Source: a virus (lineage: Duplodnaviria; Heunggongvirae; Uroviricota; Caudoviricetes). Taken from it: a DNA stretch of 64,000 bases. The translations under genes and the position numbers were made by a program. Shown piece after piece: positions 32,601 through 62,919 of the stretch (position 1 is its first letter; each line of letters opens with the position of its first letter). The notes under the pieces were generated by a model that searched no databases, was not told the DNA's origin, and saw nothing but the letters and a program-made list of their open reading frames with translations. Where the stretch lies: IMG/VR virus record IMGVR_UViG_3300008107_000002; one strand, written 5' to 3'.

Positions 32601-35600
32601 ATCAGATATATCAAATACCAGAAATTGAAGTAGCGACAAATGAGTATATAAAAATTAACAATAACGGTGCTAACAGATTTATTATCCTTAAGAAAGTTGA
32701 ACTAGGAACGTTAGGTACATATAACAATAATTTTGATATAATGTACAGCGAAAAGGGAACTATTAAGATTAAAGATAGTATATGGAAGTTATCTGATTCA
32801 CAGTTAGGGTTTGATCAAATATCACCGTATGATGATACGTTCTTTGATCAAACTCCTGATGTAGAGTTAGAAAAAATTATATATGCTCTTAAGAATGATT
32901 TGTTCACAGACAATTTAAAAGTCTATTGGAATAAATTCTTTTTTGCAGGAGTTAAGTACGCACTAACAGAACAAAAATTTATTGACTGGGCGTTTAAAAC
33001 AAGTTTTATTAATGTTAAAAATATAGCTGGAGAGTTGAATCAACGACCAATTTATAAATTTCAAGATTCTCAGTGGTATGAAAATTATCTCGATGAAATT
33101 AAACCATTCCATACTAAAGTAAGAAATTACAAGTTAAGTTATTCAGTGACAGATCCTTCACTAACCTTTGCAACTGATTTTGATCTTCCTGGCGTATACG
33201 ATAAAACAATAGGCAAGTTTAAACCATTATCGGCTGGTGATATTGAAGCTCAACAATATCCTTACAAAGGCTGGTTTGACAATTATAAACTTCATTTAGA
33301 TAGGATAATTCTTGTCAATGCTGGTAAGGGATATACAGAAACTCCTCAAGTTCAAGTAATTCCTGCATTAGGTGAAACTGTTACAAGGCCAGCAATTGTA
33401 AGAGCAGTATTAAGTGGCGGTAGTATATTAGATTTTGAAATTTTAGATTCAGGAGAAGGATATATTACTAACCCTACAATTCTATTTGTAGGCGGCGGCG
33501 GCGCAGATTATACCCCGGCCAAAGCTACTGCTGTTATGTCTAACGGAAAAATAAGAACTAATCTTATTTCTCTAAAATTTGATAGAATATCAACAAATAG
33601 AGAAGTGGGATCAAAATTAGCAACTGATCAATTTACTGTTGTGGGAAATGAAAACGAATTTGTTTTATCGTGGCCTGCGCTATATGACAAGACTAATATT
33701 ACGTTAAAAGATAACGGTATTATTGTGTTATCTTCAAACTATATACTTGAGAATTTTTCATCAAAAGTTAACGGTTATAGTAAACAATTTACAAGATTAA
33801 TTCTTAATTATACTCCGGATCTAGGACATATAATTTCTATTACATATCCAAAAAGTCTTAAAATTTATCAAGCATTTGATAGGATACAAGACTATTATAA
33901 TCCGTTGCCAGGAATGCCAGGTAAGGATATAACTACTGGATTTTCTCAATTAATGAAAGGAGTAGAATATCCTGGAACTGAAATTTCAACACAGGCGTTT
34001 GATAACAGTTATCCATGGGACGGTGATCCATGGGGAGAAATTCCTTGGGATATCTTAAATTATTCAGTTACGGGATATATTCCAACTAGGGCAAATCTTC
34101 CTAGTTCGTATTCAGGTAGCATAGGCGATAGTTACATGACCACAGACAACAATCACAAATGGGAATGGTCTGGTACTACATGGATTGACAGGGGCGAAAT
34201 TAATAAAGACCTTGACACTCTTATTGATGGCGGCAATTTTATAAAAACGTTAGCTAGTGGATTTGCCACTGCGGCAGGCACAACTGCTACTGACGTTATT
34301 CTTGACGGTGACGAATTTATATCTCCTTATAGGAGTCATGCTCCTGAAGAGTCTATTCCTGGTGAAGTTCATGATTCTCTTGCTATAGATGTCTTTACAC
34401 GACGATCTTCAGGTAGTGGAATGATCTATACCCTAGTTCAAGATGTAGTAGCTGGCCAACCTACTACAATCCAGTTAACTATTAAACCTCCAAATTATGA
34501 TTCAGTCACTGTTACGTTAAATCATACATTATTACAACCTCGAGTAGATTATAGTATTAATTTCCTTGACAATTCCTTGTTTGTCGTGCAAAAAGCGGTA
34601 GGAGGCACACTTGAAGTTACCTATATGGAATTTGGAGGCACCGGTTTCTTAAGCAAAGATTCAGCTGTTGTTGAAGGGGAAGCTGAGGGAGCGGTTATAG
34701 GTTCTTGTGCATTTAGAGATGTTAAGAGTGTATTTGTAAGTGTTAATGGAGTAAGAATATACCCTCAAGGAACGTTCTATGCTCAATTGCAATATTTTGA
34801 GTTAACTAAAGCAGATGCTAAAAACAGTGCTAGAGCAAAAGTTACAGTATACGGATTAGGTATAGGTGAACCTAACACAATTACGGCTATATTCTTTAAT
34901 GGTGATAAAAAGTTTAGTGAGATTAAAGAACAAGTTTGGCTTAATTTAGATAATAATAATAGAGATGTTGCCTTATCTCAACCTCCAGGCCTGCTTGGTC
35001 CTGCTTCTGCAAATTCTATTGTAGAATTAAACAGAAGAAGACTTGTTCCTCCTAATACCACTTATTATGAGATAACAAACTTATCTCAAACACAATTTGA
35101 TATTAATACTCGAAAAGTTTATCCGGCTAACTCTTTTGATAATACAATTATTGAAGTTTATAAGAACGGAATAAAACTCTCAATTGGCCAATATGAACTT
35201 AACCAATACTACAATAGAGTTGAATTTGCAGACAACTTCTTTAATTTGGGCGATGTGTTAGCAATTACTTCTATCGTTGATTATGATTATGTGATAAGAG
35301 GCAATGTTCTTACTATCTCGGAAAGAGTTGATATTACAGGCTCTAATAGATTTAATACTCTTAATGAACCCGGTTATGACGGAGTTACATATCTTCGAGC
35401 TATTACATTTACTAATCAAGATAACAGTTTTATAAGAACTGAAGTGTATGAAGCAAATAGTTCAAGAATTTATAAACTCACTCGAGTGGTAGTAAATGAT
35501 AACTTTGTTTGGGTATCTATTGGAGATAAAGTTTTAACTAGCGGATATGATTTTGAAATAATGGAAGATTTAAGAACAATTCGTATTGATCCAGATATTC

Positions 35601-36517
35601 CTTATAACGAAGGCGATCAAGTTATTATTACTAGTTTTACTGAACAAGTGGCTAGCCTTACAATTGGATATAAAATATTTAGAGATATTTTAGGCAGAAC
35701 ACATTATAAGAGATTGAGCTCTGCAGAAACTACATACCTAACTGAAGCATTGTTACCTACATCTACAACAATTAAAGTTCATAATGGAGCAATATTACCA
35801 ACACCTGCATTAGAATATAAAACACCCGGTGTAGTATTTGTTGCGGGAGAACGTATCGAATATTTAGAGAAACACGGAAATGTCCTATCTAAATTGCGTC
35901 GAGGAACATTGGGCACTGGAGTAAAAGAACAGTACGGAGTTGGAACTTGGGTAGTTGATCAAAGCAAGACCCAAACTATTCCATTTGCAGAATCTGTTAT
36001 CACACAAACATTCACTAATACTAGTGTTATAAGCACATTTACTCTAACTCATAATAAATTTATATTTGCTAACGATGTTAAACCACACGATGCTATAGAA
36101 ATATTTGTTGGCGGAGTAAAATTAGAAAAGCCGTTGCAAACTGGTAACTACCGTGTAATACATGACGGGACTTTATCGTTTGACTCGGGTGTAAATGATA
36201 CAATTTTAGAACCGGATTTTACAATTACAACCAGCACACAAACATTTGGAACTATGTATACAGTCAGCTTGTTAAAACCAGTTGATCCGCATTTAACTAT
36301 ATCTGTAGTACAACGTAGATCAACAACTTGGTATGATATAGTTCCTCCAAGTTTTACAGCTTCCTTATTTGATCAAAATACTGTACCTGCTACATTTATT
36401 AAACAACGAGAAGCTATTACCCCCGATCGATTCTCTTATGGAGGCGATTCTGTTTTACGTTTAGATGATGGAACCGCTCTATTATTAGATGACGGACGAG
36501 AAATTAAAGAGTATTAA
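23609..36517 (+). CDS. Giant multidomain baseplate/virion protein (gp7 position), 4302 aa
   Basis: Overlaps the gp6 stop; contains FG-GAP-like repeats (VGAP, FG.S) at about 29590-31010, CBM5/12-like W...Y..G motifs and Ig-like repeats. Confidence 0.75.
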   Translation: MASRKSVNLLPSFLRTEKNNKFLSSTLDQLISPPEITRIDAYVGSKDTPSYRTGDEYLQESNPLREKYQLEPALVVRTLTRSIKKAFALDDLLNQVKVNGIDSSNIDRILNPKFYSYDPKINWDKFVNFREYYWLPSGPSAVEIAGRTLSPVTEFNIVDADDKIQFLFDAKTTSPTLTLYRGATYVFNVKSQHNFYIKYTNSVGSNDSVPLTNNGTKDGQIIFTVDWSAPERLFYVSNDDQLSTGNIFVKDPIDSTLIDIENEIVGKKHYTSGNNVTFIDGLKVRFSGTVIPETYKDNEYIVEGVGNAIKLIKFTDLDTPDVTADAYNSRFDGTNFDQFPFDNFKNIPLVPEYVTINRASKDLNPWSRYNRWFHSDVIREVAKANNQLVIYPAEYRATRPIVEFIPDLQLYKFGTTAIPNVDLIDTFTTNIFKTIEQEDGYDIDQITVEEGFRVVFNADSDPAIRGKVFKVNFARFGDRFKINLTQESDIPVVGTSVLIKKGIEHGGSSWFYNGITWVKGQQRTKRNQAPLFDLFDENGISYSSSEYTTDFKGNALFGYGVGTGPVDPVLGFPLAYRNTGIEGTYLFKNYFAIGSIQLVNADQSATISTAQTYFKINSDNGTTVSNIWLSVEPYEIPNVNGIYDTPLNLTNNPSNKNITEFTLTELSDHVRSMVSRDPEFKGDFPGVSNLKDLPFITRFGTKLITNINPLSFAQHFITDNDNSVINAMRLVGENYQTFKFNLIKTISDLNDNLSPIDALDEALRILNQNKTTTFPYYSSDMVPYGVSPVIRTYRITDSRKTKYALPPDASVTILSSRGLLVYLNTTQLIRGRDYKFDSYDANVEILVPIVRGDVITIKDYPTTDGNFVPPTPSKLGLYPAYEPAIFEDDSYINGPKTVIQGHDGSITIAFGDYRDEILLEYEKRVYNNIGTEYRADIFDITAILPGVFRNSKFSYREVINPVLQDFLKWKSTFGVEIEKNLTFDVNEPKTYNYSSVKLSSGDYLPGNWRAIFKLYFDTDRPHIAPWEMLGFSVKPAWWESEYGPAPYTSGNTKLWEDLKLGKIAQGTRKGFDLNYARPDLINILPVDSYGNPIPIRNWGILNANSSVDGITNNWKFGDMGPAETAWRRSSYWPFALQIISALTNPATYTALMFDTSRIVKNAVDKLVYSNDNLPINSSKVILPYETINGQKQFASGYSVIVIEAGLIKNSNYIKNLKLELTNAEFNLMNKVGGFVSKDKLEVVIDSVNPNSINPGILLPTEDYSIHFNVSNPIDTIEISGVIVQKVQGNYIVRGYDKTNSYFKINAPIRQQVDPYITVGAISEDYTVWSPNTFYSIGQVILNDNVFYRVSSNHSSGFIFDTLNSQKLSTLPTIGGITAQLSTGFEDTETTIPYGTLYQTPQEVVDFLLGYSRYLTNKGFVFDEYSKELGELLDWKLSIKEFLFWTTQNWNEANIITLSPFASKIKLTTKNAVVDNVFNPYYEYSIYKANGAPFPYSDISLSREDGFCTISTDNELEGIFYAKLRLVQKEHAIILNNLSRFNDVIYDTATGYRQRRIRLIGFRTANWNGNFVSPGFVYDDVKITPWGPYTDYTAGDVVEYAGKYYSLIRSLAGEETFDFSKWYKLDNKPTAQLIPNFEYKINQFEDFYSLDIDNFDIGQQQLAQHLIGYSSRVYLDNIFLNPIAQYKFFQGFIREKGTLNALKKLERASVHNLQGNIEFNEEWAFRIGTFGAFAALDEIEFPLNELDFVDNSQIVKFVEKAPNISYDPTNYITPDKFTIKNPEIDILNLFDTVPSSTNEELLVLPYAGYATLEDVDYTVVSKSELISGPVNSNIKVGDTVWVGFDDNEDWGIYRYSRLPIAVKQVYSYRDGEQISFITDKNHGLKVGDVVAVVRFSDTLDRTYVISEINRLDEFVVDYTGSIPDFVSQFGLLFKFVSSRFETFDDIINTTYLADFRQGKKVWIDNNISGNWEVYEKTNNYFISRLPNVIDYDYARYGQVVKAEENSNILIVGAPDYDDGNGSGKVFVYTNVNGVLTQLFYYGVNRFLNQYYNNNLSPAPKGGFGSAIEYDPIDGYIIASAPYASYIRSETSGNTRFVLSTAPTSSYQKEGLVVISSVNLANNGETRHFTLSCSEPENGLEFGKSLYVTNTATHKLLFVGAPGKSYNAGAVYFYDLAIVKSVPDVLTFDNNLTTFDKNTCLFDAVGAVKIDTNVTATSQIKLPTPPIVSAGSRFGEVISGNNLGTRIAVSAPQYNNGNGAVFVYRKSSTVNSYTLIQTLLHSDVAHGGKFPLYSRFGASVSMTDDGNWLIVSADLADDKNVEKGKVAIYKWSTSLNLFVFSQLLQNPSSTRGLKFGHKVETDKSGEILVVSAQGPNYFYGLTYDDGSTTFDAESTNFGAVINDSGSAYVYNRYNDKFIYATELFDYQVDAGSFYGADIAVTRNYVYVGAPLDITTGTTRGGQVFAWNAIDPLANTWKLIRQQSNLVDTRNIKSIKTIDSFNEQVLDYLEIYDPIKGFIPSPAENELRYKSLFDPAVYNTGTNTKVNIDITSYWGKEHVGELWWDLSAVKYMLYEQGNIDYRRNLWGSLFPGASIDVYEWIESDFIPSEWGLSADTTAGIALGISGTPKHLDDSVYVEEQIYSPISGQLISKYYFWVKNSILVPSRQGRNISANEVAGYIEDPKGYGLRYLQVHSANSLSVVNTKETLVNERILLNIQLNNSDSNKHSDWLLIEEGSANSLPNPLLEKKFVDSLLGRDSLGNVVPDPSLTERQKYGIQIRPRQSMFKDRLEALRNLISYANAIFVNNLITDFYNLSTLNLKDEIPPITSRAYDLIVEDLEKKLTISTKELVQAEFTAVLTDGKITNVNIINSGHGYGKLDPIAYNQAGEPILWHGPDITIDNDTNGAIINTEINSVGSIINVIIKNSGKNYNTPPVLVVRPYTLIVQTDSDSKGRWTKYALINGDWEKIQTQSYDTTLYWDYIDWVSPNYNPNQAISATLDQIYQIPEIEVATNEYIKINNNGANRFIILKKVELGTLGTYNNNFDIMYSEKGTIKIKDSIWKLSDSQLGFDQISPYDDTFFDQTPDVELEKIIYALKNDLFTDNLKVYWNKFFFAGVKYALTEQKFIDWAFKTSFINVKNIAGELNQRPIYKFQDSQWYENYLDEIKPFHTKVRNYKLSYSVTDPSLTFATDFDLPGVYDKTIGKFKPLSAGDIEAQQYPYKGWFDNYKLHLDRIILVNAGKGYTETPQVQVIPALGETVTRPAIVRAVLSGGSILDFEILDSGEGYITNPTILFVGGGGADYTPAKATAVMSNGKIRTNLISLKFDRISTNREVGSKLATDQFTVVGNENEFVLSWPALYDKTNITLKDNGIIVLSSNYILENFSSKVNGYSKQFTRLILNYTPDLGHIISITYPKSLKIYQAFDRIQDYYNPLPGMPGKDITTGFSQLMKGVEYPGTEISTQAFDNSYPWDGDPWGEIPWDILNYSVTGYIPTRANLPSSYSGSIGDSYMTTDNNHKWEWSGTTWIDRGEINKDLDTLIDGGNFIKTLASGFATAAGTTATDVILDGDEFISPYRSHAPEESIPGEVHDSLAIDVFTRRSSGSGMIYTLVQDVVAGQPTTIQLTIKPPNYDSVTVTLNHTLLQPRVDYSINFLDNSLFVVQKAVGGTLEVTYMEFGGTGFLSKDSAVVEGEAEGAVIGSCAFRDVKSVFVSVNGVRIYPQGTFYAQLQYFELTKADAKNSARAKVTVYGLGIGEPNTITAIFFNGDKKFSEIKEQVWLNLDNNNRDVALSQPPGLLGPASANSIVELNRRRLVPPNTTYYEITNLSQTQFDINTRKVYPANSFDNTIIEVYKNGIKLSIGQYELNQYYNRVEFADNFFNLGDVLAITSIVDYDYVIRGNVLTISERVDITGSNRFNTLNEPGYDGVTYLRAITFTNQDNSFIRTEVYEANSSRIYKLTRVVVNDNFVWVSIGDKVLTSGYDFEIMEDLRTIRIDPDIPYNEGDQVIITSFTEQVASLTIGYKIFRDILGRTHYKRLSSAETTYLTEALLPTSTTIKVHNGAILPTPALEYKTPGVVFVAGERIEYLEKHGNVLSKLRRGTLGTGVKEQYGVGTWVVDQSKTQTIPFAESVITQTFTNTSVISTFTLTHNKFIFANDVKPHDAIEIFVGGVKLEKPLQTGNYRVIHDGTLSFDSGVNDTILEPDFTITTSTQTFGTMYTVSLLKPVDPHLTISVVQRRSTTWYDIVPPSFTASLFDQNTVPATFIKQREAITPDRFSYGGDSVLRLDDGTALLLDDGREIKEY

Positions 36518-52912: not shown

Positions 52913-53349
52913 TAGCCTATCTCTGACTTTCCGTCACCTAGATTGTTTACATTAACATAACCAGAACCACGTCTGTCCATATTAACCCCTGCTTCGGCTC
53001 CTACATTTCGGCAAAGCTCTTGAAACCATAGATCAACTATTTCTTCTTCGCTCTGCCCTTGAAAGCCGTTAAGTCTTAATTGTACTATAAAATGCTCATT
53101 CCAGTCAAGTTCAAAGAATCCGTTCCTTACATTATCTGCATTAACTTTAGTTTCTAATACAGCAACATACGGTTCTCCTTTTTCGTTTGCTAGTTCTTTT
53201 GGAGATAACTTTGAAATACGTTCTTTTTCGGCTGCTTCGGCAATAACTACTTCTGCTTTAACTGTTGCTTCTTGTAATTTTTTTTCTGCTTCGGCTGTTA
53301 ATGCTTCTATTTTATCAATACCAAATATTTTTTTAATAAACTTTTTCAT
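52912..53349 (-). CDS. Hypothetical protein
   Basis: Likely start MKKFIKK at 53349 (TAATG overlap with the queE stop). Confidence 0.75.
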   Translation of the reverse strand: MKKFIKKIFGIDKIEALTAEAEKKLQEATVKAEVVIAEAAEKERISKLSPKELANEKGEPYVAVLETKVNADNVRNGFFELDWNEHFIVQLRLNGFQGQSEEEIVDLWFQELCRNVGAEAGVNMDRRGSGYVNVNNLGDGKSEIG

Positions 53350-54191
53350 TAAGTTCCCCATTCGTTCTTGAAGAGCGGCACTTGTAGTCTATCACTATAC
53401 CGCCATCCTTTTCGCATTGCCATTTCTGCCACTGCACGATTGTTAAGGGTATACACCCGCTCAACCCCGCCAATGGGCATAATATAAACAGGACCTGTGA
53501 ACCCCGCAATACGATACTCTTCAACTGCTCGTTCAGCATCTTTAAGGTCCTCCTCTGTTGCCACAACAAATTTCAAATACACATATCCGTAATTTTGATA
53601 GTCACAGACTACCTCAGGCTTGATTGCATCTTTCCAAGGCTCACCTGAACAAGGCAGTTTAGCACTTACGCTAAAAGTAATTTCTCTTTCATCACTGCCA
53701 TAAGTCCAGTCTGTTAAAAACTCTTTAAACCCACTAGTTAACCGCATAGTGCCATTTGTTTCAAATGTAATTTCTTTAAGACTAGACATCTTTGGATGTG
53801 ATAGTAATTCTGGAAATTGTTTTTGCCAACCTAGCAAAGGTTCACCACCTGTGATGACAAGATGTTCATCACGCCATTCCCCGTGCGGCAACATATCTAT
53901 GATTCCGTCAGCAATAGCATCTGTTGAAAGTAGGGGACTGAGGTCTTTAAAACGTGGGTCCCAAGAAGCATAACTATCGCAACCAGTACTAACAAGGGGT
54001 AGTTCACGATATGTTTTAAATTCTAATGGATTAATATTATTTGCTTCTTCGCTTAATTCACCTCTTGGCATACCAAATCCTTGGCATTTAAAATTACAGC
54101 CGAATGTGCGTAAGAAAACGGAAGGTACACCCATGTATCTTCCTTCACCTTGTATTGAATAGAATAACTCTGATATTTTAATTTTGCTCAT
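53349..54191 (-). CDS. queE: 7-carboxy-7-deazaguanine synthase (radical SAM QueE)
   Basis: ELFYSIQGEG..G.PSVFLRTFGCNFKC, ITGGEP, ETNGT, SDRLQ. Confidence 0.9.
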   Translation of the reverse strand: MSKIKISELFYSIQGEGRYMGVPSVFLRTFGCNFKCQGFGMPRGELSEEANNINPLEFKTYRELPLVSTGCDSYASWDPRFKDLSPLLSTDAIADGIIDMLPHGEWRDEHLVITGGEPLLGWQKQFPELLSHPKMSSLKEITFETNGTMRLTSGFKEFLTDWTYGSDEREITFSVSAKLPCSGEPWKDAIKPEVVCDYQNYGYVYLKFVVATEEDLKDAERAVEEYRIAGFTGPVYIMPIGGVERVYTLNNRAVAEMAMRKGWRYSDRLQVPLFKNEWGT

Positions 54192-54477
54192 AAATGTTTG
54201 ACCATATTTTTAATTTTTCAATTTTTGCTTGCTTGGCAGTATTTAGACCTGTATCGCTAACAACATTATAATATTTTAACAGATCTATCATCGCAAGTAA
54301 ATCCCCAATTTCGCCTTCTAAATGTTGAGCATTAGTTAACGGCTTTCCGGGTTTTGCATTATCTAATCCGAATCGGAAACATTTACTCACAGCTTGTGTA
54401 ACTTCCGCACATTCTTCTTGAGTGATTAATAATACTTCTCTTAATTGATTGTTCATATCAGTTGTCGCTTTATCCAT
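54178..54477 (-). CDS. MazG-like nucleotide pyrophosphohydrolase
   Basis: QEECAE...EGEIGDLL all-alpha NTPase motif. Confidence 0.8.
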   Translation of the reverse strand: MDKATTDMNNQLREVLLITQEECAEVTQAVSKCFRFGLDNAKPGKPLTNAQHLEGEIGDLLAMIDLLKYYNVVSDTGLNTAKQAKIEKLKIWSNIYEQN

Positions 54478-54949
54478 TTTTTGCTCTTTCTGTTAAGTAA
54501 GTGTCGTTATGAATCCATTTGTTCTTAACTAAAAATCCCCATTCTCTTTTTTGAGGACCCGGCATAAACAATGTCCACGCAGTCACGTTAGGATCGAGCT
54601 CAATGCGGTGATAACTGGTAGCGGAACAGATGCGAAAATGTCCTGGACCGCACCACTTACTAACTTCTCCGATTTTTCTACCTACTGTATCAAAAACTGG
54701 TGTCCATTCATAATATCCACCTTTAAGGATAAGTGTAGCATAAGGCCAAGGATGATCATGAACATCATCTGGATCTGACTTGAGAAACTTGTGCAGGAAC
54801 ACATTAAATGGAAACTGTTTGCGTTCTTTTAAAAAAAGATAGTACCGTACAAGATAGGGTTCGTTGTTTACCCTATCCATAATAAGTCTTTTTCTACCTA
54901 GCCTTTCTAACACCCTTAAAAACCATTTCATTTGCAAGTCTCCAGCCAT
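54470..54949 (-). CDS. Cupin-fold protein
   Basis: HDHPW...GGYYE...HRIEL metal-binding cupin motifs; the true start may be MKWF, a few codons in. Confidence 0.7.
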   Translation of the reverse strand: MAGDLQMKWFLRVLERLGRKRLIMDRVNNEPYLVRYYLFLKERKQFPFNVFLHKFLKSDPDDVHDHPWPYATLILKGGYYEWTPVFDTVGRKIGEVSKWCGPGHFRICSATSYHRIELDPNVTAWTLFMPGPQKREWGFLVKNKWIHNDTYLTERAKNG

Positions 54950-55143
54950 TCATGTAAACGAGTTACCGCTTCGTTAAAGTCAACACCGTACACCTTTGCC
55001 GACATGATGCTTCCTGTAATTTCTATATCAAATGGTACCACACCATTAAATTGAAAATCTTCTGGGACTTCTGTTTCGACAATAAATTCTTGTAAATGTT
55101 TTGCTCTAAAAATAAGGTTATTAGCCATGTCTACGGAATTCAT
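54928..55143 (-). CDS. Hypothetical protein
   Basis: 71-aa ORF in the operon. Confidence 0.65.
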   Translation of the reverse strand: MNSVDMANNLIFRAKHLQEFIVETEVPEDFQFNGVVPFDIEITGSIMSAKVYGVDFNEAVTRLHEWLETCK

Positions 55144-55152
55144 ATTTTTTCC

Positions 55153-56100
55153 TTAATTGGGTGGGTAACATTCAAACAGTGGCAGATCACTACCTATTTG
55201 GTCAATTTCGTTAAATTGATAATTGTATTTTTCTAAATCTCTAACAATTTTTTTAATAATTAAATCTCTAGTAGTATGAATAGTATCATGCGGTTCAATA
55301 ATTATTTTAGGTTGACATTTATTAAAGAATTCTTTATCTTCAAAAATAACTTCTTCAGCACCTTCGATATCACACTTAATAAAATCTACACGACTTAAAT
55401 TTTTTAATTTTACTAATTCAGAAAGAGTATATGAATTAATTTTTTCATTTTGACCCCCTCGGAATTCAGGAACACCTACAATGGATACCGCAGATGATCC
55501 CATACTACCCTCTGATGAAAATTCTATTCCATTGTTATGATTCCACATTGCTCCGTACACTAGATCAATGCTAGAATTTGTAATATTTTTATAAAGTTTA
55601 AAATTCTTTTCTATTGCATCAATATTTTGCCGATCAGCTTCTACTGCAATAACTGTACCCTCATGTCCTACTAGATCTTTAAACAATATAGAGGTTAATC
55701 CCGAATATGCTCCGAGATCAAGTACTACATCTCTAGGTTTTAATTTGGCAAATTCTAAATATTGATTTGTAGCAAAGATGGGTTCAGCTATGGCAGGAAA
55801 ATAAATTGGATGGCGATCGTATCCTATAACATCGTGATACTTTGGCTCTGAAAAATCTACTATTTCTTTGTCAGCATACACTAATGGAGCAACTGATTTA
55901 AAATAAAAATCAAATTCTAAAATTATTCCATAAAGATAAATCATATGATGCACGCCTAGTCTTAATATTTGAGAACCCTTTCTTAATTCTATATCGTGCG
56001 CCGATGCAACAATTTCTATTCCTAACAATGATGCAGATTGCGTTGCAGGATGATTATAATTGTATCGATATAATTCTTCTATGGTCGATAATTTTTTCAT
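55153..56100 (-). CDS. FkbM-family SAM methyltransferase
   Basis: VLDLGAYSG, AVEAD and FIKCDIEGAE motifs. Confidence 0.88.
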   Translation of the reverse strand: MKKLSTIEELYRYNYNHPATQSASLLGIEIVASAHDIELRKGSQILRLGVHHMIYLYGIILEFDFYFKSVAPLVYADKEIVDFSEPKYHDVIGYDRHPIYFPAIAEPIFATNQYLEFAKLKPRDVVLDLGAYSGLTSILFKDLVGHEGTVIAVEADRQNIDAIEKNFKLYKNITNSSIDLVYGAMWNHNNGIEFSSEGSMGSSAVSIVGVPEFRGGQNEKINSYTLSELVKLKNLSRVDFIKCDIEGAEEVIFEDKEFFNKCQPKIIIEPHDTIHTTRDLIIKKIVRDLEKYNYQFNEIDQIGSDLPLFECYPPN

Positions 56101-56324
56101 TATTTTTTTGTTTTATTTTTTACACTGTCAATAGCCTCACGTACATCACGTGCCAGTGCTTCGTCGTCCCATTCTAGTTCTGTGCGTCCATCTGGATGGG
56201 TTGTTACAGTAAGGTGACTACCTTTAACTACGGTAGTTTCTTTTGGAAACACTAATTTAGCACTGCCTATAGTACCAGGCATTTCTAATTTAATATCAGT
56301 TGATTTCTTTTTACGGGTTGCCAT
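56100..56324 (-). CDS. Hypothetical protein
   Basis: 74 aa, GAGGAG SD. Confidence 0.7.
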   Translation of the reverse strand: MATRKKKSTDIKLEMPGTIGSAKLVFPKETTVVKGSHLTVTTHPDGRTELEWDDEALARDVREAIDSVKNKTKK

Positions 56325-56325
56325 A

Positions 56326-56448
56326 TTAAACTCCTCTATAAACTATTCTATATTGAGAAGCAGGATAATTTTCCTGCAGCCATTCTAGTAATCCGGGCTC
56401 ATACGGTACCCGTATGCTGTCGTATTTGTTGGTAATATAATGTGTCAT
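56326..56448 (-). CDS. Unannotated 40-aa small protein
   Basis: ATG overlaps the folE TGA; MTHYITNKYDSIRVPYEPGLLEWLQENYPASQYRIVYRGV* fills the gap exactly. Confidence 0.6.
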   Translation of the reverse strand: MTHYITNKYDSIRVPYEPGLLEWLQENYPASQYRIVYRGV

Positions 56449-57284
56449 CGCGGTGCAAACTCTTGTTGTAACTTGATGTTATCAAAGAACTCTTTCTTCG
56501 TATTACCATCGGTGTTAAATGCACCTTTAAGCACAGTTGTCTGTGTTAAACTTGAGTGTGCCATAATGCCGCGATTCTCACAACATCCGTGTACCGCTTG
56601 AATATAGACTGCTACGTTTTCTGAGTCGGTGGCCTTACTAATCTCACGTGCTATGTCATTACACAATTCTTCTTGTAGGGTACCTCGACGAGCACACCAT
56701 TGCGCGATCCTTGTGTATTTTGACAGTCCGATAAGTTTTTGGGCGGCGATGATTCCAATGTAGGCAACACCGCTAACAGGCTGATGATGATGGCTACACA
56801 TACTGCGAAGCTCACTACGAACCACAAGCATACCTTCATAACGATCCGCGGAATCGTTAGGGAAAGCCGTAGCATCTGGGGCTGTTTCATATCTACCTGC
56901 CATTATTTCGTTAAAGTACATTTTAGCAAGACGACGAGCTGTGCCTTTACTATTGGGGTCATTTTCACGATCAATTAACAAGCAGTCTAACACTTTTTCA
57001 AATGCTAGAGTTGTTTCTTTGATTAGCTCTTCTTTCATTTTGTCATCAATGTATTCACTGATGTTATCCCCGGCCCAGAACCTTTTACCATTACGTTTCA
57101 TTACAAAACCTAAATAGTTATGTGCTGTGCCTTCTTGATAGCCGCTATCACCGTACATTGCGTCCAGTGCTGTTTCTTTTTTAATATATACTTCTTTACC
57201 TAGAGGTGTATATTCTTCTGATTTGAATTCTGGTTTAATTCCAGCTTCAATTACTGGGTCAGGTACAAATTCTTTTTTTGTCAA
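56445..57284 (-). CDS. folE: GTP cyclohydrolase I
   Basis: RSMCSHH, GLSKYTR, LQEEL and HGCCENRG; TTG start with GGAG SD. Confidence 0.95.
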   Translation of the reverse strand: MTKKEFVPDPVIEAGIKPEFKSEEYTPLGKEVYIKKETALDAMYGDSGYQEGTAHNYLGFVMKRNGKRFWAGDNISEYIDDKMKEELIKETTLAFEKVLDCLLIDRENDPNSKGTARRLAKMYFNEIMAGRYETAPDATAFPNDSADRYEGMLVVRSELRSMCSHHHQPVSGVAYIGIIAAQKLIGLSKYTRIAQWCARRGTLQEELCNDIAREISKATDSENVAVYIQAVHGCCENRGIMAHSSLTQTTVLKGAFNTDGNTKKEFFDNIKLQQEFAPR

Positions 57285-57326
57285 TTATAATTCTCCGAGT
57301 TAACGTCGAGGATGACGTATATTGTA

Positions 57327-57355
57327 ATACTACGCTATTATTTAGGTTCTGTCAA
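57327..57355 (-). promoter_or_regulatory. Composite promoter: TTGACA-17-TAGTAT with TAAATA (57339-57344) inside the spacer
   Basis: Both elements read directly upstream of folE. Confidence 0.65.
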
Positions 57356-58144
57356 CCTTAATAATGTATTTTTCTTAACTGCCGCATTGAGCACTTCTAA
57401 ACTTTGACCATATTCTTCTGCCCATTTGAGTAATGCGGCAGTATCTTTTGGAAAACACATTCCTCCAAAACCCATAGCACCGTCTGGACCAGGCACCTTC
57501 ATATGACTTCCGCCAATTCGACTATCCATAGTAATCATGCTGGCAATTCTATTATAGTCAATGCCAGCAGTTGATGCTACTTTATATAATTCATTCATGA
57601 ATACTACTTTAGTAGACAAGAAACAATTAATAGCATATTTGGCAAGACTTGCTTCGGCGGCTGTTGAATATCGTATGTCTTTAAGACTAGCCTGTCCCCA
57701 TTTAATAATGCGTTCAGCTTCTCTTATATAAGCAGAAGTGCTTCCGCCAATAATGGCAAACGTGCCATTTGCATAATCTCTACTAGCATTGGCCGCCGTT
57801 AAGAATTCTGGTGCGTGTACAAGATTTTTATATTTTTTAGAAAGTGATTCGTAAACACTCGGGGGTGCAGTAGTCTTACTAATAATAACACCGCTGAAGT
57901 CTTTGAGCTTTTCTAATGTTTCTTCTAAAATACTTGTATCACAACTTCCGTCGTCATTGCTAGGGCTAGGAACACATACAAATACAGCCTCACAAGATGC
58001 AAGATCTTTGTAGGTGTGCGGTAATCCTTTTGGCGGATCCACTAAAATTAAATTACCAAAACCGTCCATCGAATCACGAATTGCACTACCAACAAATCCT
58101 AATCCTACAATTCCTATTTTAGGAAACTCATCTACAAAAATCAT
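57338..58144 (-). CDS. ugd: UDP-glucose/GDP-mannose dehydrogenase family, lacking the C-terminal domain
   Basis: GIVGLGFVG, KTTAPP, PEFL, KYAIN and catalytic GFGGMCFPKD; only 268 aa. Confidence 0.85.
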   Translation of the reverse strand: MIFVDEFPKIGIVGLGFVGSAIRDSMDGFGNLILVDPPKGLPHTYKDLASCEAVFVCVPSPSNDDGSCDTSILEETLEKLKDFSGVIISKTTAPPSVYESLSKKYKNLVHAPEFLTAANASRDYANGTFAIIGGSTSAYIREAERIIKWGQASLKDIRYSTAAEASLAKYAINCFLSTKVVFMNELYKVASTAGIDYNRIASMITMDSRIGGSHMKVPGPDGAMGFGGMCFPKDTAALLKWAEEYGQSLEVLNAAVKKNTLLRLTEPK

Positions 58145-59238
58145 TTAATATGCTCCAGCAACTGATCTGCACTAAAGAAATATTTAGATAAGTCTTCAGT
58201 TTGTTTGCGTAATTGTGATAACCGTTTTTCGTAATGTGTCATTGTAACAATAATATGATGGCACAATTCTTGCCTATGTTGCAGATAACTATTCCAATCT
58301 TGTGTCCATGCACTAGGATATTTAAATCCTTCATAATACATTTCACTGTATGACAAGCGATCCGGAACCATAGGAATAGCATCGAGTAAGGCTCCCTCAT
58401 AGCAGCCAATACCTAGTGTTTCCTGTAGGCTGGCACTAAACACAATTTTAGCTTCGCCTAACAAATTATGATACTCATTCTTTGTTAGCTGTTGATCCTG
58501 ACACACAATAAATTCATATTGAGGTAGCTGTTCTTTGAGATCTCTAAAAATCTCAACCTGCTTCTCGGGTGCGATGCGATGAGGGAAAAGGATAAGATCA
58601 CGTTTAGGCATACCTTTATACGAAGTAAGGGCTAAATCCATATACTCCATTGGCCAGCCAGTTTTAACAATCTTGCCGCTGTCATAACGTTCGGCCCAAT
58701 CTTCTTCGTACCAAGGATTTTCACTTTTAAAGCCGTCTTCTAACAATTCGTCAAAGAACAATTTAACGTGAAATTCTGTAGCAAAGTAATTATGATCAAA
58801 TGCATGGAAGAAACTTTTTTCGGCATGTCTTACCCACTTCTTCTTGCCAACAAGCCGTCCGAGGAAGTCTTGCGGATCATAACTGCCAGCATGCCATAAG
58901 CCGTGTGTAACAACTGGTATGCCCAGTAGTTCGCTCATGTATTTGAGATTGATGATACCAGGGTGCCAAGCATCAGTAAATACAAAGTGATCACCGGCAC
59001 GAACGGCTCCGTCGCAAAAAAGGCGACCCATCTGCTGAACCTGTGCTGACTTATATATGTTGGTACCGCCAAAATTAAGGAAAGCACCAGGAGTAGTGGC
59101 AGAAGGAATATCTTCAGGGCCAGAAATAACTTGAACATTGTGTCCTGCCTTTTGTAAAAGAGCGGGTACATGGGACTTCCATTGTCCCGTGTACCTTGTC
59201 TCAACTGATTCTAAATCAACGAGAAAAACGTTCGCCAT
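58141..59238 (-). CDS. GT-B fold glycosyltransferase
   Basis: FPHRIAPEKQ...QETLGIGCYEGA...PDRLSYSE matches the GT-B C-terminal E-x7-E region. Confidence 0.8.
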   Translation of the reverse strand: MANVFLVDLESVETRYTGQWKSHVPALLQKAGHNVQVISGPEDIPSATTPGAFLNFGGTNIYKSAQVQQMGRLFCDGAVRAGDHFVFTDAWHPGIINLKYMSELLGIPVVTHGLWHAGSYDPQDFLGRLVGKKKWVRHAEKSFFHAFDHNYFATEFHVKLFFDELLEDGFKSENPWYEEDWAERYDSGKIVKTGWPMEYMDLALTSYKGMPKRDLILFPHRIAPEKQVEIFRDLKEQLPQYEFIVCQDQQLTKNEYHNLLGEAKIVFSASLQETLGIGCYEGALLDAIPMVPDRLSYSEMYYEGFKYPSAWTQDWNSYLQHRQELCHHIIVTMTHYEKRLSQLRKQTEDLSKYFFSADQLLEHIK

Positions 59239-59467
59239 TGTTTCTATTCTCGTGTCTTGGTTTGTTGCCTAAATACGGCTTGCGCTCACCGTTCCATGCA
59301 GGACGAGAGAAATATTTATATTCCTGAGATTTATAAAGATCAGCAGGATTATAAGGAAGCAGATTAAATCTGCAATGATCTAACCAGGCGTCGAGATCGT
59401 CGAACACTTTCTCGACTTCGGGTTTCATGCGGAGAGTTTTTTGAATATAGGCAGGGATATTTGCCAT
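59216..59467 (-). CDS. Hypothetical protein
   Basis: Likely start MANIPAY at 59467, just after the QueD-like stop. Confidence 0.65.
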   Translation of the reverse strand: MANIPAYIQKTLRMKPEVEKVFDDLDAWLDHCRFNLLPYNPADLYKSQEYKYFSRPAWNGERKPYLGNKPRHENRNNGERFSR

Positions 59468-59468
59468 T

Positions 59469-59867
59469 TTAAGATTCCATTGTAGAAATGTGATTAATAA
59501 AAGTAAGTGCGGCGCCGTTCTCACCGTCTTCACTTACATCGATGATGGTCTTACGACCGGGGTACCTTGCTTTGATTTTCTCGTTTAATTCACGAGCAAT
59601 CATTTCACAAGATTTGTGGTTGAGCTCAAGTGTACCTTCGCTGTACATCTTTTCAAGCCAACGCTTAAACTGGATAAACTCAATATCGCGATCATCTTGA
59701 TAGACTTGGATAAAGACTTTAAAATGGAAAATATGACGATGCGGTGTTCCAAGGAAACTTACATCATATTCGTCGCCTGTGGCTAACTTGGGGTCAGTTG
59801 CCGCGGCAGGATACATATGAATACCTTCTTTACGGAAGGTAACCCAAATCATTGATAAATCACTCAT
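59469..59867 (-). CDS. QueD/PTPS-like T-fold protein with non-canonical active site (DpdL-like candidate)
   Basis: His plus HRH zinc ligands, SCE and EDGENGA; L-x3-HRH-x-F replaces the QueD C-x3-HGH. Confidence 0.75.
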   Translation of the reverse strand: MSDLSMIWVTFRKEGIHMYPAAATDPKLATGDEYDVSFLGTPHRHIFHFKVFIQVYQDDRDIEFIQFKRWLEKMYSEGTLELNHKSCEMIARELNEKIKARYPGRKTIIDVSEDGENGAALTFINHISTMES

Positions 59868-59882
59868 AATTTTCTTTCTTTG

Positions 59883-60554
59883 TTAAACAAGGGGGATCCA
59901 ATGGTTTTCATACAAACTGTTGTCTATAATTCTTCCTGGTAGAATATCAAATGCAATAGTAATTCTTGGTCTATCTGAAATTGCCCAGGGAATATTTCTA
60001 TGCATCGGACCACTGGGACTTATAAACAAAAAGTTATCTTGACCGCACACATCGGCTAGTTCATATTCTGTATTATGTTCTAGTAGACACATATTATTAT
60101 AAACGTAATCCTTTTCGTGTGCAATACTTTCTTGAAAAAGTGGAGGAAATAATGCATAAGTTGTTTTACTCTGATCCACATCAACGCAAAAATATCCGTG
60201 CCAGCCATTATCTTTGCTTTCAAAATGACTATGCCATCCTACACTTTTTGAATTGTCATACACGTTGACCCATGATCTCAAATACCAAGGTTCGTCAGTT
60301 GGCTGAATAGTTTTCCAAAAATTTGAGATTTCAACAAATAATTTATGCAATTCTTGCGAAGAAAACAAAAAAGTGTTGTATTTAAAAAATAATCTAGTAC
60401 TGAGATTACTAAAAGCTGGCCCATCAACGGGAACTTTAAAATTTCCGTATCTATATTTTACTGTTTCGTAAATAGCAAGGCAATCTTGTTTTGCTCGTGC
60501 TAGATCAATATCAAGTTTTTTAATCTTGAAATGACCCGAAGTCCATTCGTTCAT
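59883..60554 (-). CDS. Putative 2OG-Fe(II) oxygenase
   Basis: WVNVY...GWHSH...GYFCV...MHR...RITIAFD pattern. Confidence 0.7.
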   Translation of the reverse strand: MNEWTSGHFKIKKLDIDLARAKQDCLAIYETVKYRYGNFKVPVDGPAFSNLSTRLFFKYNTFLFSSQELHKLFVEISNFWKTIQPTDEPWYLRSWVNVYDNSKSVGWHSHFESKDNGWHGYFCVDVDQSKTTYALFPPLFQESIAHEKDYVYNNMCLLEHNTEYELADVCGQDNFLFISPSGPMHRNIPWAISDRPRITIAFDILPGRIIDNSLYENHWIPLV

Positions 60555-61093
60555 TTGATAATTGTATCATTTTTGTACGCATCCCAGCTAGTGAATTTTG
60601 TACGGTCTTTTAAACTATGTAGACTATGCGTCCACACACCTGGATTAGTTGCTTTAAAATCTTTGTCGTCAATTTTAATCATAGTGTTATAATTCCATAG
60701 TTTAACGTATGGAATTGGTACACGTATTTGCGGAATAAAATTATTATAATCATTCAAACTGCCATCGTTGAATTCTTCAACTGCACTTAATGGAATATCC
60801 AATGAACATAGGTATTCCTTAACTAGGAAAAATTCAATCATTTTTTCCCATTGACTCCATTCGTCTGGAGTTTGAGGATTAAAACTATGATTAGCTCCAA
60901 AAAAGATATGCGTAATGTGTTTAGACTTATCTTCATACGAGTTAAAGTCATCTAACCAATCTTGTATATCTTGGTTAGATTGCACACCGGTTACAAATAG
61001 AGTATTCATTCCAAAAGCAGGGGTATGCTCTACTTCTTTACCAAAAAAGAATACAGCATCCCCTGCTTCACCTGACGCATAATCTCTTTTCAT
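60551..61093 (-). CDS. Hypothetical protein of the modification cluster
   Basis: FFGKEVEHTPAFGMNTLFV...HIFFGANHSF; 180 aa. Confidence 0.75.
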   Translation of the reverse strand: MKRDYASGEAGDAVFFFGKEVEHTPAFGMNTLFVTGVQSNQDIQDWLDDFNSYEDKSKHITHIFFGANHSFNPQTPDEWSQWEKMIEFFLVKEYLCSLDIPLSAVEEFNDGSLNDYNNFIPQIRVPIPYVKLWNYNTMIKIDDKDFKATNPGVWTHSLHSLKDRTKFTSWDAYKNDTIIK

Positions 61094-61290
61094 TAGGCTT
61101 TTGGCATTGAAATTGCTTCTGCAATGAATACATTAAGAGCATCAACATCAGGTACAGCAAATTTGCATAGATGCCACTCTTCTGGATTATTAATATTCAA
61201 TCCAGTAATCTCAAATAAGAAACCAGAATCAAACATAGTAACGCTAAATCCAGGTTGTACTTTTGAAACTTTATCACTAATTGTCGCCAT
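61093..61290 (-). CDS. Hypothetical protein
   Basis: 65 aa, AAGGA SD. Confidence 0.65.
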   Translation of the reverse strand: MATISDKVSKVQPGFSVTMFDSGFLFEITGLNINNPEEWHLCKFAVPDVDALNVFIAEAISMPKA

Positions 61291-61329
61291 TTTATTTTCC
61301 TTTTATAAAAGTAGTATTAACTACAGCTA

Positions 61330-61369
61330 TATTTACTTAAAGTATATATTCTAATTTAGAAAACGTCAA
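61330..61369 (-). promoter_or_regulatory. Sigma70-type promoter TTGACG-17-TATACT followed by late core TAAATA (61330-61335)
   Basis: -35 at 61364-61369, -10 at 61341-61346. Confidence 0.7.
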
Positions 61370-62919
61370 GCGGTGACGCCTTCTTCTAATCTCCGAAGTT
61401 CGTCGTCATCCGGATTAGCTAAATCAATTTCATCAGCCGAAGTTACTTCTTCAACTTCGAACAAACTGCCAAAGTTATTTTGAGCAGGCCCGCCTTGTAG
61501 ACGTGCTCCTTCTAAACTTTTTAAGAATGGAATTGCTTGCTCAATCATTTCAAATGCTTCTAATTTTGTTTTAGTATTAAACAAATCTTCAATAAGACTA
61601 TTAAAATATAAAATATTACGAGGAACCCAATCACTATATTCATCGCTCATATCTGAAGATTTAACTTTCTTCCAATGTTTCCAATTAATTTTACCACGAG
61701 TCTTGGCAATTTCAATATCCATCAACTGTTGAGCACGTTGTACAGCAACAATATGACATTCGACATTATGACCCATCATCAGTGCGTAGGCAAAACTATC
61801 CCATGAAGTCTTACCTTCCTTGCCGATCTTATTGAGCATACCGGGAGCATAATGGGCAATATCCCCCATTGTTAATCTGCGACCAATTTCACTTTCGAAG
61901 GGAAACGGGATGTCGGACTTTGCAAGTGCTTTGTTATCTGGTGCCTTGTCCATAATAACGCTCCACCTTTTGGGAGTGTGGACTGCGTTTGTGTAGACAA
62001 GTCCGTGCGCTGTTGCAATGAACGGTGAGGCGCAGTCAAAAGATATGGTAATTTCTTCATTGATATGTTTCCTAATTTGTCGTTGAATCAAAGTTAAGTA
62101 ACAACTCCAGTCAAGTTGCGCTGTACCCAAGAAGTGGATCCAGTTTTTGCCCTTCAGCAAACCATCTTCTCTTAACGTCATTAGACGTTTGAGAGTAATA
62201 TCCATTTTACACATATTAGCACCACCAAAGGCCCAACCTTCGGCTTCCTTACCAGCATACTTGCCTTTGGGATCACTAAACTCTTTAACACCATCATACC
62301 ACTTTTCAGCAGTATCCCAGTCACTACCTTGTAGAACATTAAGCCATTTAGTTTGACCTAATCGATTCATTAAGAAGTAATCGTTATTAAACTTTGTTTT
62401 ATCCAAACAATCTTCAAATGTTTTTAAACCAGTCTTTGGACTATGGATGTGATCACAAGCCCAGGTAGGAACGTCTAACATCATAGACCAATCAGCGGTT
62501 AGTTCTAACCACTCTAAAATCTTTTGACGTGTAGCGTTTGCTGACTTACCTTCAAAATCTAACCAGTCAAACTTGAGAACACCTTTACCAATTTGATATC
62601 CACCAGAGTCGCCTAGAATCATAGTATTGTTTCGATCACGTTGTTGGATCATAGATTCTTGCACAAGACTCTTTTGTAAATCTAGTTGTGCATGACCCGC
62701 TGAATACAACCCATACTTATAGGTAAAATACCCTTGTTCCGGATTAAGAAAATTCATGCCTTCAATACCACGATCAAATCCTTTAGGAATACGACCAGTA
62801 GGAACAAATTCTTCTAGACGTTGTTTAGCAACGTAGGTACTGTAGAAAGAACTAATTGCGGGTAGATATACTGCATAGTCTTTTTGTAAAGGAGTTAGGT
62901 TAACTGGCGGTCTGTTCAT
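61366..62919 (-). CDS. dpdA: tRNA-guanine-transglycosylase-like DNA modification enzyme (DpdA family)
   Basis: TGT motifs LGDSGGYQ, MMLDVP, VLQG, HFLG, SFD and GHN; clustered with folE, queE and the queD-like gene. Confidence 0.8.
   Translation of the reverse strand: MNRPPVNLTPLQKDYAVYLPAISSFYSTYVAKQRLEEFVPTGRIPKGFDRGIEGMNFLNPEQGYFTYKYGLYSAGHAQLDLQKSLVQESMIQQRDRNNTMILGDSGGYQIGKGVLKFDWLDFEGKSANATRQKILEWLELTADWSMMLDVPTWACDHIHSPKTGLKTFEDCLDKTKFNNDYFLMNRLGQTKWLNVLQGSDWDTAEKWYDGVKEFSDPKGKYAGKEAEGWAFGGANMCKMDITLKRLMTLREDGLLKGKNWIHFLGTAQLDWSCYLTLIQRQIRKHINEEITISFDCASPFIATAHGLVYTNAVHTPKRWSVIMDKAPDNKALAKSDIPFPFESEIGRRLTMGDIAHYAPGMLNKIGKEGKTSWDSFAYALMMGHNVECHIVAVQRAQQLMDIEIAKTRGKINWKHWKKVKSSDMSDEYSDWVPRNILYFNSLIEDLFNTKTKLEAFEMIEQAIPFLKSLEGARLQGGPAQNNFGSLFEVEEVTSADEIDLANPDDDELRRLEEGVTA

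Follow-up and report, generated by a model that had tools for sequence, protein, structure and literature searches.

Can a phage carry in its DNA a guanine analogue that bears a sugar? The question is raised by a gene block at positions 53349-62919 (minus strand) of a 64,000-nucleotide stretch of IMG/VR virus record IMGVR_UViG_3300008107_000002, hereafter the window, whose source is an uncultured giant (jumbo) phage related to T4. To our knowledge, the natural deazaguanine bases of DNA all carry small groups at C7, and the sugars of DNA are known on pyrimidines (T-even phages, base J) and not on purines. The block was described in an initial annotation as a 7-deazaguanine DNA modification cluster expanded with sugar, methyl and oxidation enzymes, and the ten genes named there were all recovered, tightly packed and co-oriented on the minus strand. 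In order of transcription the block encodes a 517-amino-acid (aa) DpdA-like protein, h65, h180, h223, a 132-aa DpdL-like T-fold protein, h83, a 365-aa glycosyltransferase (GT), a 268-aa Ugd-like protein, FolE, h74, an FkbM-family protein, h71, a cupin-like protein, MazG and QueE. This gene content supports a deazaguanine DNA-modification cluster with a DpdA-like enzyme of the tRNA-guanine transglycosylase (TGT) fold, and we see about even chances that it represents a DpdL-type 7-deazaguanine modification which is decorated with sugar by the GT.

The enzyme that would place the base in DNA is the 517-aa protein (61366-62919, minus strand). Judged from its predicted structure, it is a TGT-fold DpdA-like enzyme, a long form of nucleic-acid guanine transglycosylase that retains both catalytic aspartate motifs. 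It had no match in Pfam (E ≤ 0.01), NCBIfam or PHROG, and single-sequence searches of the PDB with this protein, the 132-aa protein, the 365-aa protein and the 223-aa h223 gave nothing useful. In a Foldseek search of the PDB with the AlphaFold2 (AF2) model (pLDDT 91.1), the top 50 matches were all tRNA-guanine transglycosylases (E ~1e-7, probability 1.00, target TM ~0.5), and a search of BFVD returned phage TGT/DpdA proteins among its matches, including M4SLA5 of phage phiST (E 7.7e-4). As in bacterial TGT and DpdA, the protein has a TIM barrel, the Asp of DSGGxQ (DSGGYQ at residue 104, 62593-62610), the D, Q and GG motifs of the substrate site (LDVPT at 148, VLQGS at 195 and GWAFGG at 228) and the nucleophile Asp of FDC (Asp295, within FDCASPF at residue 294, 62020-62040). 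When 56 diverse homologues were aligned from the 906 clusters of relatives gathered, D104, S105, G107, H262 and D295 were invariant. The family profile aligns with the substrate-site motifs of TGT, with a best E value of only 0.085 against PDB TGT sequences. Between phages, hhalign related the family to the 424-aa DpdA of Acidovorax phage ACP17 (96.8%), to the annotated TGT of Xanthomonas phage X1 (95.9%) and more weakly to gp042 (DpdA3) of phiST (66% probability, E 5e-5, 83 columns only). Differences from the bacterial enzymes are that PF01702 is not reached, that the zinc motif CxCxxC...H is absent, with only six scattered Cys in the protein, and that ~130 residues are added, and the AF2 model shows a C-terminal extension that is helical and ends in a disordered tail. 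The family is widespread, with >7000 protein clusters at 90% identity in metagenomes.

Which base this enzyme would insert is indicated by the 132-aa T-fold protein (59469-59867, minus strand). Taken initially for a QueD-like protein, it proved to be a homologue of DpdL and not the pathway QueD. DpdL is distinguished by the signature LxxxHRHxF, compared to CxxxHGH in QueD, and is the predicted decarboxylase of 7-carboxy-7-deazaguanine (CDG) (Cui et al., 2023, PMC10516641). The window protein reads LGTPHRHIF at residue 39 (59727-59753), and in tblastn it matched ACP17 with 57.6% (2e-38) and phiST with 35% at gp040, the DpdL position (3e-9). The DNA of phiST is 100% substituted by 2'-deoxy-7-deazaguanosine, dDG (PMC10516641). 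Because a DpdL homologue is present, the base is likely derived from CDG or 7-deazaguanine (DG), and on this point the gene content agrees with what had been proposed.

The conservation of the module was assessed in 80 IMG/VR loci whose DpdA-like proteins are 82-92% identical to that of the window; 38 of these span dpdA to queE and form the counting set. The core DpdA-h180-DpdL-h83-GT is found in 38/38 loci, and the order DpdA-h180-x-DpdL-x-GT is kept in contigs L098 and L102, where the DpdA identity has fallen to 41-52%. The contigs of the representatives P0183, P0197 and P0159 were too short to show the gene neighbourhood. The other genes are less constant, with the cupin in 36 of the 38 loci, MazG in 34, FolE in 11 and the Ugd-like gene in 10. 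Presence or absence of the latter two agrees in 37/38 loci. The block lies downstream of replication genes. After QueE come genes for a virion-protein-like product, a 5'-3' exonuclease and an AAA ATPase of the MoxR type, and in close relatives a gene for DNA polymerase B and one of 244 aa stand directly upstream. The block is flanked by DNA polymerase/clamp and 5'-3' exonuclease genes.

The QueE, FolE and MazG assignments are supported to different degrees. The QueE-like radical S-adenosylmethionine (SAM) enzyme (280 aa, 53349-54191, minus strand) matches PHROG 2076 at 7.5e-53 and the NCBIfam QueE models at 1e-16 to 2e-10, which is under their cut-offs (best TIGR03963, 61 bits vs 260). The cysteines of its cluster are C32, C36 and C71, the last being preceded by an insert of 34 residues, and TGGEP is found at residue 114; the three Cys and TGGEP are conserved in an alignment with QueE of Pseudomonas phage PA5oct, ACP17 and phiST. 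The spacing of the cluster motif varies, from CX3C, 34 residues and Cys in the window (53979-54098, residues 32-71) and likewise in PA5oct, to CX3CX2C in ACP17 and CX3CX7C in phiST. FolE (GTP cyclohydrolase I, 279 aa with an N-terminal extension, 56445-57284, minus strand) matches PF01227 at 3.8e-39 (134 bits vs 27) and has the zinc-site motifs CSHHH and HGCC, although the NCBIfam equivalog cut-offs are not reached. MazG (54178-54477, minus strand) is a 99-aa MazG-like nucleoside triphosphate pyrophosphohydrolase by PHROG 4856 (6.1e-23), with PF03819 at 21.3 bits, just below the cut-off of 22.

A sugar is suggested by the 365-aa protein (58141-59238, minus strand), which according to its fold and motif is a GT4-like retaining glycosyltransferase of the GT-B type. 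The AF2 model (pLDDT 91.8) superimposes over residues 1-365 on 6kih with Z 25.3 (317 residues aligned, rmsd 3.3), and its structural neighbours are sucrose-phosphate synthase, BshA and MshA (Z 25.3-24; Foldseek E 2e-11). The EX7E motif is intact (E273..E281, 58396-58422), and both glutamates are invariant in 48 homologues. PF00534 gives no match to the window protein and 19 bits, compared to a cut-off of 26.4, for the PA5oct homologue, and is carried by many other homologues. In all 38 loci the gene is placed between DpdL and the rest of the module. The GT family also occurs in 22 isolate records of cultured phages, 17 of which have DpdL as well, with the two genes 0-3 kb apart; these are records of Phosso, ACP17, X1, BUDD and BCSR5 and eleven PA5oct-like records, which makes six cultured lineages. 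Phosso has the two genes side by side, at a distance of 170 kb from its best match to the 517-aa protein. The glycosyltransferase named in the initial annotation is thus real and a fixed part of the module, both here and in several unrelated phages.

Glycosyltransferases encoded with early DNA-metabolism genes are known from T4, whose alpha- and beta-glucosyltransferases (AGT and BGT) transfer sugar onto a pre-modified base, 5-hydroxymethylcytosine, and the T-even relatives vary the sugar between lineages. The window GT differs in that neither T4 enzyme is among its top 50 structural matches, as it groups with GT4 enzymes of small molecules, and in that the acceptor would be a purine analogue with no hydroxymethyl handle evident. 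In eukaryotic tRNA, a GT4-family enzyme (GTDC1/QTMAN) glycosylates a 7-deazaguanine derivative in nucleic acid, which gives mannosyl- and galactosyl-queuosine. In glycosylated queuosine the sugar is on the cyclopentenediol, whereas no QueA- or QueG-type genes are found in the module of the window.

In the pathway that we propose, FolE would convert GTP to dihydroneopterin triphosphate (H2NTP), a QueD encoded elsewhere in the genome would form 6-carboxytetrahydropterin (CPH4), and the QueE-like enzyme would yield CDG. The DpdL-like protein would then convert CDG, for which the literature predicts decarboxylation to 7-deazaguanine, and the 517-aa DpdA-like enzyme would swap guanine in the phage DNA for the 7-deazaguanine base. 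The most likely role of the GT, as a fixed core member, would be to glycosylate the deazapurine, either prior to its insertion or in the DNA, while MazG may police the nucleotide pool. The Ugd-like protein and, in this sub-lineage only, the FkbM O-methyltransferase and the 2-oxoglutarate (2OG)-oxygenase-like protein may tailor the sugar or the base. We deduce the chemical steps, the DNA target and the sugar acceptor alike from the gene identities, folds, motifs and co-occurrence observed. The replication-gene context, the constancy of the GT in the core and the intact EX7E and FolE motifs are all consistent with a glycosylated deazaguanine, and our literature search found no paper on such a base in DNA.

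A more specific form of this proposal is that guanine is replaced by a sugar-bearing 7-deazaguanine whose sugar is lineage-specific, and that in the window phage the sugar is oxidised and/or O-methylated by the Ugd-like, FkbM and oxygenase-like proteins. We hold this form only tentatively; under it, the base of this sub-lineage would be more elaborate than that of any relative. The part concerning lineage-specific sugars draws on the slot that follows the GT, where an Ugd-like gene is found in the window and an epimerase-like fragment in PA5oct. In L098 (10843-12509, plus strand; DpdA 41% identical), a GHMP-family kinase and a sugar-1-phosphate nucleotidyltransferase stand directly after the GT, which suggests a dedicated supply of NDP-sugar. 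Since the slot beside the GT varies in sugar-nucleotide enzymes, its content argues for a bespoke GT donor and for a sugar that differs between lineages.

The accessory enzymes of the window are supported to different degrees. The Ugd-family dehydrogenase (268 aa, 57338-58144, minus strand) is truncated. Its N-terminal and central domains are above cut-off (PF03721, 6.7e-12; PF00984, 6.7e-23), as expected from the assignment made initially, and the NAD site GxGxxG (GLGFVG) and the catalytic-Cys motif GGMCFPKD are kept. TIGR03026 is matched at profile positions 71-294 of 413 only (134.5 bits vs 189.8), and the homologue in L093 is likewise short with 271 aa. The FkbM-family SAM methyltransferase (315 aa, 55153-56100, minus strand) scores well above cut-off with PF05050 (2.7e-15; 57.4 vs 22.7 bits) and TIGR01444 (2.4e-19; 70.2 vs 37.7 bits). 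The oxidation enzyme, h223 (223 aa, 59883-60554, minus strand), is weakly 2OG-Fe(II)-oxygenase-like, as the PF13759 match (E 0.011, 16.5 bits vs 27) is sub-threshold but spans the whole profile (positions 1-101); it belongs to PHROG 2696, with no function assigned, and has no PDB sequence match. Among isolates, FkbM and h223 have remote cyanophage matches only, and both occur together, in the same order, only in the three contigs with DpdA-like proteins 95% identical to that of the window (L093-L095, the nearest sub-lineage). Comparison with L093 gave dN/dS values indicating purifying selection on all tested genes, with values ≤0.1 for these two (0.10 for h223). By sequence, FkbM and h223 are real genes of one sub-lineage that stand outside the shared system. 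The cupin-like protein (54470-54949, minus strand) belongs to a phage family named 'cysteine dioxygenase', for which PHROG 4786 (6.6e-38) is the sole basis, as no Pfam or PDB sequence match was found even in a profile search. It likely starts at an internal Met, which gives 153 aa, and His64, His66 and His114 are invariant.

Several observations weigh against a sugar-bearing base. At C7, plain 7-deazaguanine offers no evident hydroxyl or amine as acceptor of a sugar. The closest structural neighbours of the GT glycosylate small molecules and not DNA, and 11 of the 28 isolate records with DpdL, phiST among them, have no GT match. As the C-terminal UDP-binding domain PF03720 is absent from the Ugd-like protein, which stops after the central domain, production of UDP-glucuronate by this enzyme is doubtful. 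FkbM and h223 are each found in 0/38 related loci, so the expectation that methyl and oxidation enzymes travel with dpdA was not borne out, and many phages (mycobacteriophages, Gordonia phages and others) have members of the cupin family outside such a module. Of the undescribed hypermodified guanine suggested initially, the fixed glycosyltransferase stands, while the co-occurrence of methyl and oxidation enzymes does not. The inference of a QueC-less module is not airtight either, because relatives carry a divergent QueC-like protein ~91 kb from dpdA. Finally, the decarboxylation of CDG by DpdL is itself a predicted activity, and no dDG was formed when the dpdL genes of phiST and ACP17 were expressed in E. 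coli together with dpdA (PMC10516641).

In one alternative, the phage simply makes dDG as phiST does. The substrate of the GT and of the Ugd-like, FkbM, cupin and h223 proteins would then be something else (e.g., a protein, a component of the host envelope or a small metabolite), and their genes would merely share the early-gene block. We consider this explanation unlikely, but it survives better than the other alternatives. With DpdL, MazG, FolE, QueD, QueE and DpdA3 and no GT, phiST achieves full substitution, and its locus resembles that of the window in the DpdL homologue with LxxxHRHxF, QueE, FolE, a MazG that adjoins pathway genes and stands beside DpdL, a TGT-superfamily enzyme, the absence of QueC and the position beside replication genes. 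The region is also, judged by its gene content, a hot spot for insertions, as other fillers in relatives include a second radical SAM gene, HIT, phosphoribosyltransferase, IMPDH-like, subtilase and homing endonuclease genes, several of them unrelated to the pathway, and dDG offers a sugar no obvious acceptor. Against a passenger GT stand its presence in every locus, where it separates DpdL from the remaining module genes, its adjacency to DpdL in Phosso far from the best match to the 517-aa protein, and the 17 of 22 GT isolate records that also have DpdL. The phiST locus also differs from that of the window: DpdA3 has 259 aa and is only weakly related to the 517-aa protein, QueD lies inside the cluster and is missing from the block of the window, and the 16-kb locus holds no homologue of the GT, h180, cupin, Ugd or FkbM (tblastn E ≤ 0.01), just as phiST is not found among the GT matches.

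The pathway proposed above includes QueD but not QueC, and both were searched for. In the cluster open reading frames (ORFs) and 32 other ORFs of the window (all of the greedy ORF list except the 1147-aa and 4302-aa ones), no Pfam match at E ≤ 1e-3 was found for QueC, QueF, PTPS/QueD or a second TGT, in agreement with the reported lack of queC and queF. One of the 32 matches phrog_447, 'NAD synthetase', and no Pfam PP-loop family matched any of them. In the nearest related record searched, G001 (13.9 kb), no match to QueC or TGT was found. A true QueD does exist in relatives, where PTPS-family genes above the Pfam cut-off lie 40-55 kb upstream of dpdA (relatives' contigs and PA5oct); the copy in G002 reads CxxxHGY. 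The suggestion that QueC might lie elsewhere in the genome finds a partial counterpart in G002 and G003, which have the Ugd-FolE form of the locus and encode, ~91 kb from dpdA, a 206-aa PP-loop protein with SGGLDS and a QueC-like C-terminal Cys motif. By its sequence it may be either a QueC that has diverged strongly or a PP-loop enzyme of another kind. The G002 copy is at L091:1474-2094 (minus strand), and a second, weaker copy is also present in G002.

If such a protein were a working QueC-like enzyme, the base could be of the nitrile or amide type (preQ0, ADG or a derivative) and DpdL would have another role. The PF06508 score of the 206-aa protein (30 bits, cut-off 22) is in line with this, as is X1, where an annotated PAPS-reductase-family gene (L097:1846-2379, plus strand) adjoins FolE, between it and the GT-DpdA-DpdL-QueE block, and may be an analogue of the QueC step. 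However, the QueC match is limited to the last ~60 residues, TIGR00364 is reached with only 35.5 bits, far under its cut-off of 150, and no similar protein was found in PA5oct, G004, G005 or the window. A nitrile or amide base is therefore improbable, and the gene content points to a module that is likely QueC-less.

Even less probable, in our judgement, is a pre-replicative route in which a deazapurine nucleotide is incorporated by the phage polymerase, MazG removes dGTP and the TGT-like protein has a salvage or editing function. MazG is found in 34 of the 38 loci and in phiST, PA5oct and some relatives have phosphoribosyltransferase genes in the variable slot, an IMPDH/GMP-reductase-like gene is found in L003, and the block adjoins the polymerase. 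Yet the block of the window encodes no phosphoribosyltransferase or nucleotide kinase, and the DpdA-like protein, which has both of its catalytic aspartates, is never missing. It has moreover been argued that every deazaguanine modification known in DNA is post-replicative (PMC10516641). The least probable explanation of all is a target other than DNA, i.e., a queuosine-like base in tRNA or a glycosylated pterin made from GTP by FolE, the PTPS-like T-fold protein and the GT. In its favour, FolE and the T-fold protein belong to pterin metabolism, the Foldseek matches of the GT include pterin glucosyltransferases (5zer, 9v0l), and tRNA is the classical substrate of TGT enzymes. The pterin enzymes are, however, not the top matches of the GT, scores are similar for all GT4 enzymes, and neither QueE nor a TGT-fold enzyme fits into a pterin pathway. 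In addition, the window contains no tRNA genes, the block stands in a replication-gene context, and PA5oct DNA is restriction-resistant at G-containing sites.

The closest cultured relative for the block is PA5oct (Wroclawvirus), a Pseudomonas jumbo phage. Its genes EST35_0316-0322 include a DpdA-like protein (43%), the GT (41%), DpdL (57%) and QueE (28%), and the same exonuclease and AAA genes follow the module. They differ in the variable slot, which holds the epimerase-like fragment and a phosphoribosyltransferase, in the h180 homologue, which lies 28 kb away, and in that FolE, Ugd, FkbM, cupin and MazG have no match in the locus. PA5oct DNA is reported to be restriction-resistant and suspected to contain a modified G, and END nucleases, whose targets are hypermodified phages only and one of which recognizes modified G specifically, restrict the phage; that study did not identify the base (PMC12191111). 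In the papers that we searched, no chemical identity of the PA5oct base has been published. In ACP17, a T4-like phage, the order of ASD50399-50406 is QueD, FolE, the h180 homologue, the 424-aa DpdA, GT (35%), DpdL and QueE. Compared to the window, the DpdA of ACP17 is shorter, QueD lies within the cluster, and Ugd, FkbM, cupin and MazG are missing there. As PA5oct, ACP17, Phosso and X1 are cultured and PA5oct has a suspected modified G, the question is directly testable. A sugar-bearing deazaguanine, if confirmed, would be the first glycosylated purine analogue in DNA and a new class of DNA base, and would matter for the evasion of restriction and CRISPR, for nucleases that depend on modification (e.g., the END family) and for basecalling from nanopore data. 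The present analysis contributes a sub-lineage whose accessory set (Ugd-like, FkbM and oxygenase-like) is the largest, counts of the genes that do and do not travel with dpdA, genes for sugar activation next to the GT in its variable slot and, in relatives, a gene far from dpdA that may encode a QueC-like protein. Three components of this widespread module, namely the 517-aa TGT-fold family, h180 and h83, are uncharacterised.

The last two of these are conserved genes of no assigned family. The gene for h180 (60551-61093, minus strand) is present in 38/38 loci and always follows dpdA in the clade. Homologues are found in ACP17 (29%, adjoining FolE/DpdA), PA5oct (41%, elsewhere in the genome) and L098 (30%), whereas the 'glycosylase' of Phosso and the X1 protein in the h180 position turned out not to be homologous. 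No Pfam or PDB sequence match was obtained for h180, a profile search against the PDB gave nothing useful, and a predicted complex of the DpdA-like protein with h180 scored 0.00 in a run without controls. A 677-aa ORF in the related contig L053 (6975-9008, plus strand) joins DpdA and h180, but it has no counterpart in 150 family representatives and is probably an assembly or sequencing artefact. The small protein h83 (59216-59467, minus strand), encoded between DpdL and the GT, likewise occurs in 38/38 loci and has no family match. Its gene is part of a 105-aa GTG ORF that extends to 59533, and translation probably starts at an internal Met, which gives h83; the homologue in L093 is called as 83 aa.

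Three small ORFs without a family match complete the block, all on the minus strand. The 65-aa h65 (61093-61290) is lineage-specific and occurs in 3/38 related loci and in L093-L095, h74 (56100-56324) has homologues in 24/38 loci with a varying position in the block, and h71 (54928-55143) is found in 10/38. Megablast of the block against phage records gave no match, and scans for promoters and terminators were uninformative. The synonymous divergence between the window and L093 ranges from 0.015 (FkbM) to 1.65 (GT) within 9 kb, an unevenness that points to recombination mosaicism inside the module.

Some of the fillers of the region in relatives are of interest in their own right. A second radical SAM gene (~300-345 aa, PF04055, 8e-7), absent from the window, is found in 22 loci, including L076:15609-16646 (minus strand). 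It lies between cupin/MazG and QueE and is listed on the opposite strand in L002, L076, L015 and L037. In L003 (11809-13410, plus strand), a phosphoribosyltransferase and an IMPDH/GMP-reductase-family gene stand side by side in the variable slot, and the phosphoribosyltransferase of PA5oct adjoins QueE. Such neighbours may reflect purine salvage linked to the module. The remainder of the window encodes a T4-type portal, prohead protease, gp55-like late sigma factor, SbcCD-like and baseplate genes, and its tail/virion module contains a single 4302-aa ORF at 23609-36517 (plus strand) that adjoins the 1147-aa ORF.

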